From Bacillota bacterium (GTDB lineage: Bacteria > Bacillota > Sulfobacillia > Fermentithermobacillales > Fermentithermobacillaceae): 64,000 bases of DNA. A model generated the notes under the pieces. That model was not told the origin of the DNA, searched no databases, and was given only the letters and a program-made list of their open reading frames with translations. The stretch spans positions 96,852 to 160,851 of the forward strand of contig JAXGOJ010000001.1 in the NCBI GenBank assembly GCA_040767525.1, in the 5' to 3' direction. Position numbers and translations under genes: made by a program. Of the stretch, positions 5,777 through 47,296 are shown one piece after another (within the stretch, counting starts at the first letter, position 1; each line of letters starts with the position of its first letter).

Positions 5777-5803
5777 AAGCCCACTCCTTCCGGTTTAAAT
5801 TGT

Positions 5804-5863
5804 AGTACGCTTTTGCTTACCAGCCAACATCATATCAGATGTCAAAAACTGCTGATGCTTACT
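5804..5863 (-). promoter_or_regulatory. Candidate structured 5' leader of folT
   Basis: Nested stems seen by eye on the minus strand: AGUAAGC/GCGUACU, AUCAGC/GCUGGU, GACAUC/GAUGUU. It does not match the THF riboswitch consensus as I recall it. Confidence 0.3.
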
Positions 5864-5913
5864 TTAGCCTGGAACACTTTCCGCAAAATAGTAATGCCTA
5901 TATTTTCTGACTA

Positions 5914-5943: not shown

Positions 5944-5972
5944 CAAGTTGCAAAAGGCTTAAGCCTGGCAAT

Positions 5973-6152
5973 ACACCCTGCTGTGTGCGTGAATCACGGT
6001 GAAGATTGAGCCAACACCGTGACAAAGGGAGCCTGGACGCTGATGGGCGGAGTGCAGGTCGCCTTGGAGCGAAAGCACAGATGCTCACAGGAGGGCACCC
6101 ACCTGCTGAGGGCAGGTTCAATGCCTTCCGGGTTCACGGCATGGCGGGGTCT
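5973..6152 (+). ncRNA. ssrS: 6S RNA
   Basis: Ends pair (ccctgctgtgtgcgtgaa with ttcacggcatggcgggg). Firmicute 6S signature blocks TTGAGCCAACA, AAAGGGAGCCT, GCCTTGGAGCGA, GGGCACCCACCTG and GCAGGTTCAA are present. Length about 180 nt. Confidence 0.85.
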
Positions 6153-6219
6153 TGCATTCAGCACTCCAGGTGTGTTCGGTTCCTTATACAATTCACCGGG
6201 ATACAGGTGGATATACCGG

Positions 6220-6260: not shown

Positions 6261-6347
6261 GCCGAAGTGGTGGAATAGGCAGACACGCGGTGTTCAGGGC
6301 GCCGTAGGCTCACGCCTGTGTGGGTTCAAATCCCACCTTCGGCACCA
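6261..6347 (+). tRNA. tRNA-Leu(CAG)
   Basis: Acceptor stem GCCGAAG/CTTCGGC, anticodon arm CGGTG-TTCAGGG-CGCCG, long variable arm, GGTTCAAATCC, encoded CCA. Confidence 0.97.
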
Positions 6348-42594: not shown

Positions 42595-43242
42595 ATGCAG
42601 GAAAGCACTTTCAGAGGCTTTGTGGCGCTCCCGGTGCCTTCAGGTATCAAAACGTTTCTGCAATCTTTTTACGTGAAAGCCACAAAAACTTTCCCAGACT
42701 ATCGCTTTGTCCAAACAGGCAATTTGCATATTACCTTGCAGTTTTTAGGCAGCAATGTTAAGACATCCTTGATTCCGGATATCCAAACCGTGATTCAGTC
42801 ATCAGTCACCAAAACACTCTGTTTCGATGTTTCCCTTGGGAAAGCCTCAACATTTCCTGAAAAGGGCCTTCCGAGAGTCCTCTACATAGGAATTGACCGT
42901 GGGAAAGAGGAGGTTGAGCAACTGGCCCGGGACTTGCGAGCAGGATTAGAGTCTTTGGGATTCAGAGAAAACAAACCTTTTAGAACCCACATAACTGTGG
43001 CCAGACGTAAACGTCAGACTGGTTACAGAAAGCAAGGCAATGCCGGTTATAATCACTGGACAAAAGCCTTTTCTGATTTCATAACACATTATCATGATGA
43101 ATCGGCCAGTGCCCTTAATTTGCACTGGCGGGCCTCAGAAGTGCTGCTAATGGAAAGTAATTTGACCCCAACAGGGCCGGTGTACTCGGTACTGTCAGGA
43201 ATTTCATTGCCAGGCCGAACGAAGGAGCGAACATATGTGTAA
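42595..43242 (+). CDS. thpR: RNA 2',3'-cyclic phosphodiesterase
   Basis: Two HxT motifs (LHITLQFLG, THITVARR), ESNLTPTGPVY; cinA-thpR-recA synteny. Confidence 0.9.
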   Translation: MQESTFRGFVALPVPSGIKTFLQSFYVKATKTFPDYRFVQTGNLHITLQFLGSNVKTSLIPDIQTVIQSSVTKTLCFDVSLGKASTFPEKGLPRVLYIGIDRGKEEVEQLARDLRAGLESLGFRENKPFRTHITVARRKRQTGYRKQGNAGYNHWTKAFSDFITHYHDESASALNLHWRASEVLLMESNLTPTGPVYSVLSGISLPGRTKERTYV

Positions 43243-43276
43243 TTCCATTGCCCCATGTTGGAGCTGATGTTATACT
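43228..43276 (+). promoter_or_regulatory. recA promoter with an imperfect LexA (Cheo) box
   Basis: CGAAC-ATAT-GTGT at 43228-43240 (consensus CGAAC-N4-GTTC), directly before TTGCCC-N17-TATACT with TG extension. Confidence 0.5.
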
Positions 43277-43328
43277 TGACTGGGAAAGGACTGCCAGGGT
43301 TTCAAGGCGACTCTAAGGAGTGAAATAT

Positions 43329-44366
43329 ATGCTGGAAAGAGAAAAGGCCCTAGAGTTGGCGGTTGCTCAAATAGAGAAGCAATTCGGCAAAGGCTCCATA
43401 ATGAGGTTCGGAGAAGCTTCTCAGAAAATGACAGTAGACATTATTCCAACCGGTGCCCTGGCGCTGGACATTGCTCTTGGGATCGGAGGCATACCTCGCG
43501 GGCGAATTGTTGAGATCTACGGCCCTGAAGGTTCAGGCAAAACCACCGTTGCTCTGCATATTATTGCAGAAGCCCAGAGAGCGGGAGGAATTGCTGCATT
43601 TATAGACGCTGAACACGCTCTGGACCCTCTGTACGCAAACAGGTTGGGAGTTGACATAGACAACTTGCTGATTTCGCAACCCGATACAGGAGAACAGGCG
43701 CTTGAGATTGTTGAAGCCCTTGTACGAAGCGGCGCTGTTGATTGCGTCGTAGTGGACTCTGTGGCGGCTTTGGCCCCTCGTGCCGAAATCGAAGGCGAAA
43801 TGGGAGACGCCCATGTAGGCCTTCAAGCACGTTTAATGTCCCAGGCTTTGAGGAAACTTACTGCAGTAGTGTCGAAATCGAAGTCTACAACGATTTTCAT
43901 AAACCAGGTGCGTGAAAAAATCGGGATAATGTTCGGGAATCCTGAAGTGACTCCTGGCGGAAGAGCGCTGAAATTCTACTCATCAGTAAGGCTCGATGTA
44001 AGAAGAATTGAAAACTTGAAGCGAGGCCAGGAGACCATAGGCGCCAGAACTAGAGTGCGAGTTGTTAAGAACAAATTATCCCCGCCGTTTAGAGATGCAG
44101 AGTTTGACATAATTTTCGGAGAAGGGATTTCCCGGGAAGGCTCCCTCTTAGATGTAGGCGTTGCCCACAACATTCTTACCAGAACCGGAACCTGGTATTC
44201 TTACGGAGATATTCGCCTGGGGCAAGGCAAAGAAGCTGCCAGGCAGTATTTCAGGGACCACCCTGAGACGAGTGAAGAAGTAGCATCCAAAATCAGGGCT
44301 CTCTTGAATCCGAAAGACGCCGATTCTTCCAAGGCTCCAAAACCCGGTGCCGGTGATGCCAAATAA
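43329..44366 (+). CDS. recA: Recombinase RecA
   Basis: [48 protein letters not shown]; no intein or intron. Confidence 0.99.
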
Positions 44367-44374
44367 GGACACCT

Positions 44375-44827
44375 ATGGATGAATCTCTGAAAATCCTGTC
44401 AAGACGACAGGTCAGTTCAGGTCAAATGCGATTTATGCTTTCGAGGAAAGGGTTCATGCCCGGCGATATACAGGCATGTATTGAGAAATTAGAGGAATGG
44501 GGTTATCTTAACGATAGAGTCCTTGCCAGAGATATTCTGCGGGCTATAATACGTAACACCCCGTGCGGCAAGAGACGTTGCTTTTACGAACTTGAAAAAA
44601 GGCGCTTTTGCAAAGAACTTATAGAAGAATTGGTTCAAGAAGTATATTCCGGATTGGATGAACTGTGCCTTGCCCATACTGCCGCAAAGCAGTATGCAAA
44701 AGGCAAATCGCCATGGACATTGAAAGACTCAGAGCGCCTGGCCAGGTGGCTGTATCGCCGGGGTTTCACCGGAGAAACCATACTTTCGGTGGTCAGGACA
44801 TTTGGCCCGGCAGGTGACGTAGGGTAG
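44375..44827 (+). CDS. recX: Regulatory protein RecX
   Basis: LSRR, WGYLNDR, LYRRGF repeats; directly follows recA. Confidence 0.85.
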   Translation: MDESLKILSRRQVSSGQMRFMLSRKGFMPGDIQACIEKLEEWGYLNDRVLARDILRAIIRNTPCGKRRCFYELEKRRFCKELIEELVQEVYSGLDELCLAHTAAKQYAKGKSPWTLKDSERLARWLYRRGFTGETILSVVRTFGPAGDVG

Positions 44828-44895
44828 GCGTGTGATACTGGTTTATATGATTTTATACCTGGACGTTTCATGTATAGTGCTTTTGTGCACCGACG

Positions 44896-45063
44896 TATAA
44901 TCATGAATTTGATTGGACTCAGAAACCGTGGAGTAGATTGGCCTATGGTTAAGTATTCAGGCCATGTTGCGGTTTGGGGCTTAGTGCATTTATACGGGAA
45001 TAGGCTCAATTAGCCAGGTATTGATACATTTGAGCCGGTATGCCGGGCACTGCTCGGCTTTTT
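44896..45063 (+). promoter_or_regulatory. Structured leader or sRNA upstream of rny with overlapping antiterminator/terminator-like hairpins
   Basis: TATAAT at 44896; stems aaaccgtg/tgcggttt and tggcct/aggcca; ggctcaa/ttgagcc competes with gagccg..cggctTTTT. Confidence 0.5.
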
Positions 45064-45088
45064 CTGTTTACAGAGGAGGTGACAGTAT

Positions 45089-46627
45089 TTGCAGTTCTTA
45101 CCGTATATTTTATATGCATTAGGTATAGTTTTGGCGGCTGCAGCAGGATACTTACTGCGCCGCATGATAGGCGAGGCCAAAATCAAATCTGCTGAGACTG
45201 AGGCCAAAAGAATATTGGAGCAATCCACAAAGGCCGCTGAGACCAAGCATAGAGAGATTCTCCTGGAAGCCAGGGATAGTGCCCAAAAAATCAGGGATGA
45301 AGTTGACAAAGAAATGCGGGAAAGGCGTCAGGAACTACAGCGCCTGGAACGCAGGCTGATAAACAAGGAAGAGTCTCTTGAGCGAAGGCAAGAGACTTTG
45401 ATTCAAAGAGAAGAGAACCTGTCAAAACAGGAAAAATCTTTTGCCGAGAAGGAACGGATCCTTGAGGGATTGCAGGAAGAGTCCATTAGAGAACTCGAAC
45501 GTATTTCCGGACTTTCAAGAGAAAACGCCAGGGAAAAGATTCTTCAGGAAGTCAGGGATACTCTCAAAGAAGAAAGTGCAAGGCTAATCAGGGATGCTGA
45601 GGCCCAGGCCAGGGAAGAAGCAGAACAAAGGTCTCGAAGTATAGTTGCTTTGGCCATTCAAAGGTGTGCTGCTGACCATGTTGCGGAGAATACTGTCTCA
45701 GTTGTGGAGCTGCCAAGTGACGAGATGAAAGGCAGGATAATAGGGAGAGAAGGAAGGAACATCAGAACCCTTGAGACTCTTACCGGGATTGAACTCATCA
45801 TCGATGATACTCCAGAAGCTGTAATTCTTTCTGGTTTCGATCCGGTAAGAAGAGAGGTTGCCCGGCTGGCCCTGGAAAGGCTCGTGGCCGACGGCCGGAT
45901 TCACCCTGCACGTATTGAAGAAATGGTGGAAAGGGCTCAGAAAGATGTAGAGACCATTATTAAGCAAGAGGGCGAACAAGCAGCCTTACAGCTAAGTGTC
46001 CATGGACTGCACCCTGAGCTTGTTAAGTTGCTGGGAAGGTTGAGGTTCAGAACAAGTTATGGCCAGAATGTGCTCAAACACTCTGTTGAGGTTGCCCAGC
46101 TTGCCGCCAATATGGCTGCGGAAATTGGCGCTGAAGTAACAATGGCCAAACGCGCAGGGCTTCTTCACGATATAGGAAAGGCTGTGGACCACGAGGTGGA
46201 AGGATCTCACGTAGCCATTGGAGTGAACCTTCTCAGAAGGTACCGGGAATCCCATGATGTGATACGCGCCATCGAAGCTCACCACGGTGATGTTGAACCA
46301 CAGTCTGTTGAAGCATTCTTAGTCGCAGCTGCAGACGCCATATCGGCAGCGCGCCCTGGTGCCAGGAGAGAGACTCTTGAGATGTACCTTAAGCGCCTGC
46401 AAAAACTCGAAGATATTGCCAATTCCTTTGAGGGGGTAGAAAAATCCTATGCTATCCAGGCCGGCCGGGAAATCCGGATAATGGTCAAACCTGAACGCAT
46501 AGATGACCTGGGTTCAGTCACCCTCGCAAGAGATATTGTTAGACGAATTGAAAAAGAACTGGAGTATCCAGGGCAAATTAAGGTAACCGTCATAAGGGAA
46601 ACAAGAGCAGTGGGTTATGCAAAGTAA
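45089..46627 (+). CDS. rny: Ribonuclease Y
   Basis: N-terminal TM, coiled coil, KH domain ([15 protein letters not shown]), HD domain (LLHDIGK), [13 protein letters not shown]. Confidence 0.98.
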
Positions 46628-46642
46628 GATTTCACCGAATAT

Positions 46643-46680
46643 AGGCGCTGGTTGGTCGAAATCATTCCGGCGCCTTATTT
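46643..46680 (+). terminator. Hairpin after rny
   Basis: aggcgctgg / ccggcgcct with an inner tggt-cgaa-atca extension, then tattt. Confidence 0.55.
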
Positions 46681-46747
46681 GGAAAACAGTATTGGGGCAT
46701 AAGGGATGCAAAAATCCCTTATCTTAGCCCTGGGAGTTGGTGATTAT

Positions 46748-47296
46748 ATGGCTGATAATACCCGTGTTAGCAAAGGAAACCGCCGAAACACCCGTAAACG
46801 GGTTTCCCAAAAAGACATTGAAATCCTGGCTACTTTGCTGGTGGCTTTTCCCCAGGTATCAAGAGCTGTGTTTGATCCTGCAAAACGAGGGCTGAGCCTG
46901 GTGTTTCTATGCCAGGGGCCTATCAGTAAATCGAAACGTGATAGGCTGCAGGCCCTATATCTCCAGTCAATAGAGGTATATCTAGGGTTGTTGGATATAG
47001 AAGGCGGTTTTGTTCATTGCTCCTGGGAAAGCATGGATGATTTTTGCTCGTTTCAGGTGGAAAGAGACGTAGCATCACTAACTACCGGCGAACTGAGTTT
47101 GACCGCATCATTGATTTCGGAACATGTTCCGGTACTTTCGGCTGTGGATGATTCGCCTGTCAGCGAAGAAACGGATTTCTCATGGTCTGCTAAATTCTTT
47201 TTACAGGAAATGCTAGACCAGGTGAAAGAAATTCAGTGCCCAAGAAAACTCGTTGCTTTGCGCGAAGGAGAAAAAGTACTGGTATTTGATAAGTGA
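46748..47296 (+). CDS. Hypothetical protein between rny and ymdB
   Basis: 182-aa ORF with RBS and a basic N-terminus; 9 nt from ymdB; no motif recognised. Confidence 0.8.
   Translation: MADNTRVSKGNRRNTRKRVSQKDIEILATLLVAFPQVSRAVFDPAKRGLSLVFLCQGPISKSKRDRLQALYLQSIEVYLGLLDIEGGFVHCSWESMDDFCSFQVERDVASLTTGELSLTASLISEHVPVLSAVDDSPVSEETDFSWSAKFFLQEMLDQVKEIQCPRKLVALREGEKVLVFDK

Follow-up and report, generated by a model that had tools for sequence, protein, structure and literature searches.

A conserved recX-rny spacer element with the predicted properties of a zipper-type transcription attenuator in an uncultured Bacillota family

In an uncultured Bacillota lineage, the spacer between recX and the RNase Y gene rny may be a cis-acting transcription attenuator of the zipper type, which would gate read-through from recA-recX into rny. 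We give this model-based reading a probability of about one half, and all of its support is comparative or computed. Comparison across related genomes indicates that the recX-rny element itself is real, conserved and uncatalogued. RNase Y is the enzyme that initiates most of the mRNA decay in Gram-positive bacteria, and, to our knowledge, almost nothing is known about the control of its level outside Bacillus subtilis.

The DNA analysed, referred to as the window, is a stretch of 64,000 nt from an assembly of 1.85 Mb with 48% GC and 75% completeness. In this window, cinA, a 2'-5' RNA-ligase-like gene, recA, recX, rny, an ORF of 196 amino acids and ymdB follow one another on the + strand, and all elements described below are on the same strand. 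The recA gene lies at 43320-44366 and is followed by the recX CDS at 44375-44827, which was taken from the ORF list, contains the Pfam domains RecX_HTH1 and RecX_HTH3, and ends in a TAG stop codon (44825-44827). After a gap of 261 nt, rny (45089-46627) encodes an RNase Y of 512 amino acids with the Pfam domains RNase_Y_N, KH_1 and HD. Its start codon is TTG (45089-45091), its ribosome-binding site is AGAGGAGGUGA (45072-45082) and its Shine-Dalgarno (SD) motif is AGAGGAGGTGA. The recA-recX-rny order is near-universal across the Bacillota. The 196-aa ORF between rny and ymdB (46706-47296) is without a Pfam match and is also called as a gene in public contigs of the same species. The frame of a small ORF inside the gap (44870-45013, 47 aa) is broken by gaps of 1, 2 and 5 nt in the same-genus alignment. 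The family of the source genome comprises 33 species genomes in nine genera, labelled g1, g2 and so on, with g1 as the genus of the window, and the rny loci of 40 relatives and of the remaining family members were compared. The leaders of same-species contigs have a single-base difference and are therefore uninformative for this comparison. The region 44828-45100 folds better than shuffled sequences (-87 kcal/mol, z = -2.7).

A terminator scan of the + strand from recX to rny returned exactly one terminator-like site. This is the intrinsic-terminator-like hairpin GCCGGGC-ACU-GCUCGGC at 45042-45058, followed by five uridines at 45059-45063 (TTTTT in the DNA), which was also recovered by pair counts and by a covariance model. 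A sequence-only reading of this DNA had proposed a terminator-like hairpin here in the register gagccg..cggctTTTT (45032-45063). The hairpin proved to be real, conserved and more than a chance occurrence, but the proposed register is not the best one, which is GCCGGGC/GCUCGGC at -10.7 kcal/mol. The terminator is located about 215 nt after the recX stop, and only 8 nt separate its U-run from the SD motif of rny. There is no room for a promoter in these 8 nt, and rny must therefore be transcribed through the hairpin. By scan, the hairpin and U-run are present in 24 of 26 sequences; the distance from their end to the start codon is 27-31 nt in all but one of the 24, where it is 45 nt. Across 34 sequences, 92% of the cells of the terminator stem are paired and four pairs have changed on both sides, compared with 27-54% paired cells in slid controls. 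A covariance model, R1, was made of the 3' box, the hairpin, the U-run and the SD. In a search set of 210 genomes of the class, R1 matches once per genome and always just 5' of rny, in 32 of the 33 family genomes, in all three sister-family genomes and in one further family. A generic repeated terminator or MITE was rejected on these grounds, and also because the hairpin with its U-run is found once before rny and at one unrelated genomic site. Pairing between the U-run and the SD, both of which are constrained in sequence, amounts to only three consensus pairs.

The spacer as a whole is predicted to fold as a rod that is closed by a long imperfect duplex between its two ends (44835-62 and 45014-41). 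A long-range helix closing the whole gap is present in the minimum free energy (MFE) folds of all leaders. It consists of two parts that are found in the RNAalifold consensus of g1 and g6. In helix A, the 5' strand AUACUGGUUUA (44835-44845) pairs with the 3' strand UGAGCCGGUAU (45031-45041) at a probability of 0.99, and this 3' strand directly abuts the terminator hairpin. In helix B, AUACCUGG (44855-44862) pairs with CCAGGUAU (45014-45021) at a probability of 0.98. Helix B is kept in all nine g1 and g6 sequences, with UA/UG and AU/GU changes. Helix A has a covariation score of 0.218, compared with 0.123 +/- 0.022 for shuffled sequences (none of 500 reaches it) and 0.05-0.14 for slid partners, and in the same test 73% of cells are paired versus 29-47% in controls; the rows of this test were anchored only on the CUGG and CCAG motifs. 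The score is 0.365 after the addition of three further rows (g4, the sister family and the g6 genome L013), which were placed by fit and represent other sequence versions of the duplex. In six genera with the CUGG/CCAG type, the position of the 5' strand relative to the recX stop is -19..+19, and the 3' strand is in every case immediately adjacent to the hairpin. In total, four unrelated versions of the duplex occupy homologous positions: CUGG/CCAG and three replacements of both strands, namely CUUAGCGAGA/UCUCGCUGAG in g4, GGCUGAAAACG/CGUUUUCAGCC in the sister family and CGGCUUU..UUUUAG/CUAAAAAGCCG in L013. The rod interior (44863-45013) is strongly folded and variable. Alignments show that neither its sequence nor its structure is kept between genera, and that it is poorly conserved even in the same genus. 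Both strands of the duplex must be part of one RNA, and the functional transcript would therefore start upstream of the recX stop.

In genus g2 (L010-L012, L014, L117), the terminator has two tiers, and the 3' box CCAGAUA itself makes up its lower 5' arm. These genomes also have a conserved anti-SD, CACCUCC, in the small hairpin UUGGAG-CAC-CUCCAA at about 55 nt before the rny SD. In MFE folds this anti-SD and the rny SD are paired over the intervening terminator, suggesting a further, translational level of control in this genus.

Mutually exclusive pairing is predicted where the closing duplex meets the terminator. The upstream strand, or zipper extension, covers 44798-44834, and in the antiterminator fold its part 44819-44832 (GU.GGGUAGGC.UG) pairs with 45044-45058, thereby covering the 5' arm, the loop and the 3' arm of the terminator. 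The last recX codons and the TAG stop lie inside this 5' strand of the predicted antiterminator, with the stop codon paired to 45050-52. When the terminator is enforced, 44798-44833 folds into a weak imperfect hairpin of its own. In the full-length fold the two states are about equal, the free MFE (antiterminator) being -85.4 and the terminator-enforced fold -85.0 kcal/mol, with a P(terminator) of 0.37. In folds of the growing transcript, helices A and B form once 45041 has been made, and the upstream strand holds the terminator 5' arm with a probability of 0.97-0.99 before the 3' arm exists. Masking of 44810-44839, as by a ribosome, brings P(terminator) to 0.99. A mask over the recX tail and stop likewise gives a P(terminator) above 0.9 in g1, g2, g5, g7 and parts of g6, g8 and g9, and a control mask of equal size elsewhere has no effect in the lineages that are restored by the recX-stop mask. 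In 7 of 10 lineages, the native 5' region puts P(terminator) far below the values obtained with shuffled 5' regions (median 0.9-1.0); the lineage-mean shuffle-rank sum is 2.6 versus 5.0 expected (one-sided p about 0.005, by our own calculation). In g7, the extension also covaries with the terminator loop, as UGAGCC/GGCUCA in L016 versus CAAGCC/GGCUUG in L023.

The strength of the predicted competition differs between lineages and tests. As an isolated duplex, the recX-stop region with the terminator is not above random windows in g1 (fraction 0.18), and this test is clear only in g7, two of three sister-family genomes, L013 (g6) and L118 (g8). P(terminator) also shifts with the chosen window, from 0.05 to 0.95 in L005 and from 0.39 to 0.97 in L017. 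In the thermodynamic model, the competition is absent in g3, g4 and most of g6. A second candidate antiterminator, located inside the recX codons, may be coincidental. This is GCCCGGCA at 44804-11, a perfect 8-nt complement of the terminator 5' arm UGCCGGGC (45041-48), which is found only in g1 and is contained in the codons F-G-P-A.

The sequence-only reading had also proposed a terminator/antiterminator switch, but from other parts. The kind of device that it named agrees with the predicted mutually exclusive pairing; its antiterminator does not, as the competing strand is not ggctcaa/ttgagcc and lies outside the interval it had assigned to the switch, at the recX stop (44819-44845), as an extension of the closing duplex. 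All strings that it cited are present where it placed them, including the arms of a nested hairpin, aaaccgtg 44923-30 / tgcggttt 44968-75 (six Watson-Crick pairs and two G-U pairs) and tggcct 44939-44 / aggcca 44959-64, and the supposed competing helix ggctcaa 45003-09 / ttgagcc 45030-36. In the full leader, these three helices have probabilities of 0.39, 0.42 and 0.00, and in a transcript from the promoter it had proposed they reach at most 0.03. They are absent from the g1 and g6 RNAalifold consensus and are broken without compensation in L002. The covariation analysis that it had suggested for rny upstream regions supports the closing duplex and the terminator, which covary, but not the proposed helices, which are not conserved.

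In the attenuator reading, the terminator (45042-63) stands directly after the closing duplex, and rny would be reached only by polymerases that pass it. Once formed, the duplex would zip on, and the strand 44819-32 would capture the 5' arm and loop of the terminator during their emergence. With this arm captured, no terminator would form and the polymerase would continue into rny; with the upstream strand unavailable, the terminator would form and transcription would stop. The upstream strand may be blocked by its own weak hairpin, by a ribosome finishing recX, by a bound factor or by cleavage, and a small input could flip the switch because the two states are near-isoenergetic. The functional transcript is expected to start upstream of 44819, most likely at the recA promoter (43248-76), which is favoured because no conserved promoter is seen at the recX end in the family.

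The leading candidate signals are recX translation and RNase Y activity. That the attenuator serves as a feedback or insulation device, with one of these two physiological inputs acting on the recX-stop strand, is doubtful. In the first case, ribosomes finishing recX would cover the strand, so that translated, SOS-driven recA-recX transcripts would terminate before rny and untranslated or uncoupled transcripts would be read through into it. In the second case, RNase Y would cut the nascent leader near its 5' end, the antiterminator strand would be lost and the terminator would be switched on. The main mRNA-decay nuclease would then autoregulate at the level of transcription. The antiterminator strand of the sister family, at +45..+70, is beyond the reach of a ribosome at the recX stop, and translation is therefore not a universal signal.

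The alternative that survives best, although it is unlikely, is that the spacer is a processing or stability element. The duplex (about 25 bp over 30 nt in g1) would then be cut by RNase III, or its flanks by RNase Y. Cleavage would separate the recA-recX mRNA from the rny mRNA, the hairpin would serve as a 5' stem-loop blocking RNase J1, and ribosomes would be recruited by the U-run together with the very strong SD. This is consistent with the predicted stability of the duplex (44834-63 with 45013-42, -29.8 kcal/mol), with the RNase III domain encoded in the genome and with the constant distance of 27-31 nt between the hairpin and the start codon, which corresponds to the edge of the 30S footprint. 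In addition, the 5' UTR of B. subtilis rny is cleaved by RNase Y itself, and trimming by RNase J1 proceeds as far as a ribosome bound at the same very strong SD (PMC10303841). However, a hairpin with five uridines is a terminator regardless, so read-through would still need explaining. In g5, g7, g8 and g9, the duplex is also a poor RNase III substrate, being interrupted and continuous over only 8-13 bp, and the RNase III gene of the assembly is split by stops. The sole RNase III domain match (PF14622, at C3:116284-116666) extends over two frames with in-frame stops, which may be due to a frameshift, an assembly error or a pseudogene. Processing and attenuation are not mutually exclusive.

It is quite unlikely that the hairpin is simply an ordinary, unregulated recA-recX terminator beside rny, with constitutive leak-through and a spacer without a switching role. 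The almost universal recA-recX-rny order in the Bacillota fits this, and several other classes have GCCGAG...CUCGGC hairpins with U-runs in the interval from recX or recA to rny; the thermodynamic model also gives a stable terminator for g4, g5 and most of g6. Three features would be left unexplained, namely the placement of the terminator about 215 nt from the recX stop and 8 nt from the rny SD, the covarying spacer ends with their four sequence versions, and the lowered P(terminator) with the native 5' region compared with shuffles.

Transcription from within the spacer has to be considered as well. The sequence-only reading had taken TATAAT at 44896-44901 as a promoter, from which an independent sRNA of about 155 nt, or a 5'-UTR-derived sRNA, could be made, with rny transcribed by read-through. 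Such an sRNA is improbable. The hexamer is weak as a promoter and has no -35 box, it reads TAATAA/TAGTAA in a same-genus genome, and TATAAT is no commoner in the window than chance (19 observed versus 27.6 expected). A transcript from it (start 44908) would terminate with a probability of 0.99 and have no competitor, as an sRNA would. In several genera, weak promoter-like TG-n-TAnnnT motifs are found repeatedly within the rod, +55..+90 from the recX stop. Starts at these positions would also count against the attenuator, because the antiterminator strand would be missing from such transcripts. A perfect CTTGACA-N17-TAnAAT is present at the recX stop in other Bacillota and is predicted to give rise to a leader of about 170 nt with a strong terminator at its end. 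On the other hand, the interior between the promoter and the terminator is conserved neither in sequence nor in structure, of the two conserved duplex strands, one would belong to the sRNA and the other to DNA not co-transcribed with it, and in g9 the promoter-like block itself pairs within the RNA (AUACUCG/CGAGUAU).

Promoter candidates were also found further upstream. One inside recX, TTGCCA-16-TATAAT at 44523-44550 (11/12 match), was rejected: it coincides with the codon string V-L-A-R...A-I-I, and its -10 element is lost in a same-genus genome, where it reads AATGGT. For recA, a plausible promoter is present at 43248-76 (TTGCCC-17-TATACT with a TG extension). The region upstream of recA (43227-43276) also contains an imperfect LexA/Cheo-like box, CGAACATATGTGTA; a perfect GAAC-N4-GTTC was not found anywhere in the window.

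Known RNA families do not account for the element. With the Rfam 15 covariance models, 43000-47000 gave nothing relevant at E <= 10, including RF00013 and RF00040, which bears out the earlier remark that no named attenuator family applies here. At the gathering score, only a T-box, a 6S RNA (5972-6154) and two tRNAs were found in the whole window, and our literature search yielded no description of an attenuator between recX and rny. The rod shape with its closing stem and the promoter-like hexamers in the interior might suggest a second, divergent 6S-like RNA. This is extremely unlikely, since 43000-47000 has no RF00013 match even at E <= 10, the interior lacks conservation, and 40 of 41 related genomes have one canonical 6S RNA each at another location. 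The canonical 6S RNA of the window (RF00013, 87 bits; 5972-6154, + strand) is followed by a tRNA (6261-6344) and adjoins a 'folT leader' that was flagged at 5790-5870 by another first-stage note.

The closest known parallel to the proposed attenuator is cATT of pLS20 and related conjugative plasmids, a zipper-type attenuator (Gonzalez-Alvarez et al., NAR 2026, PMC13401043). For cATT, in vitro transcription, mutagenesis and SHAPE have shown the layout compared here, the near-equal energies of its two states and an antiterminator that forms by default (PMC13401043). The layouts agree in a weak upstream stem-loop (SL-2 in cATT), a long imperfect stem-loop and an intrinsic terminator before the first gene. 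In both, an upstream segment is complementary to the terminator's 5' stem and its loop, and the long stem extends into the antiterminator, which for the rny leader is a prediction. The two states also have similar free energies, and the antiterminator is predicted to form first during transcription. The likeness is one of architecture only, known here from computation. Whereas cATT is found at the head of a conjugation operon on a plasmid, the rny leader is chromosomal and precedes a housekeeping RNase gene. Also, unlike in cATT, its upstream strand overlaps the stop of the translated recX gene, which makes the ribosome a possible input. Ribosome-mediated attenuation of the trp-leader type depends on the position of the ribosome, which decides the fold. 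In a similar way, the model predicts that a ribosome at the stop of the upstream ORF would make the antiterminator's 5' strand inaccessible and so favour the terminator. However, the 'leader peptide' would here be the 150-aa RecX, the terminator lies about 215 nt downstream and there is no codon-based sensing. The trp-leader geometry also fails in the sister family, where the strand is out of the ribosome's reach.

Leader-based control of decay enzymes has been described in other bacteria. The leader of B. subtilis rny is 164 nt long and AU-rich, and the gene is transcribed from a sigma-A promoter of its own (Korobeinikova et al. 2023, PMC10303841). Cleavage by RNase Y occurs mainly in the 5'-terminal 50 nt of this UTR and also in the first 100 nt of the ORF (PMC10303841). 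The B. subtilis leader and the leader in the window have in common the gene, the length of the leader, an exceptionally strong SD (AGAGGAGGUGA) and an expected control of RNase Y through its own leader. In B. subtilis this control consists of mRNA decay and RNase J1 trimming, and no terminator/antiterminator has been described (PMC10303841). In the window, by contrast, the terminator and the closing duplex dominate the leader and no promoter is evident. A more distant parallel is the 5' UTR of Escherichia coli rne, Rfam family RF00040. Autoregulation of RNase E occurs through a hairpin in this leader (cited in the discussion of PMC10303841). The rne and rny leaders are both long and structured, and each precedes the gene of the main decay-initiating endonuclease, the level of which it is thought to set. 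The enzymes and RNAs are unrelated, however, and the rne leader acts on mRNA decay and not on termination.

Structured rny leaders are also observed outside the order. Among 67 diverse Bacillota rny loci, 13 show a terminator-like hairpin at no more than 60 nt from the SD, and the stem is often the same GCCGAG/CUCGGC. In eight loci from other Bacillota classes (L027, L028, L030, L036, L038, L066, L067 and L090), a perfect CTTGACA-N17-TAnAAT overlaps or follows the recX stop. The leader predicted from it is about 150-200 nt long and ends in a strong terminator, at a distance of 15-94 nt (mostly 15-51 nt) upstream of the rny SD. In two of these, L028 and L067, the first 25 nt or so of the predicted RNA pair with the terminator 5' arm, and P(terminator) is 0.00-0.01 versus 0.92-0.98 with shuffled 5' ends. 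The Lachnospiraceae have a different rny leader, which is short and highly conserved: TTGACA-N17-TAtAAT is followed by GUACAAUGAAAAYUAAAUAAGGAGGUGCUCCUGUG, in which the SD is enclosed by an AGGAG/CUCCU hairpin extending to the start codon (L045, L051-L054, L057, L059-L062, L064, L068-L070, L076, L078, L083, L084, L087, L094 and others). A related block, UGAAAAYUWAAUA, is located before the SD in Tissierellales and Clostridiaceae.

If rny is indeed transcribed by read-through only, control of the RNase Y level in this family becomes directly testable. The spacer, whose motif is absent from Rfam, would then be a chromosomal, housekeeping-gene case of the zipper-type attenuator, a device described only in 2026 for conjugative plasmids (PMC13401043). 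In addition, the decay machinery would be linked in its expression to the SOS-controlled recA-recX unit.
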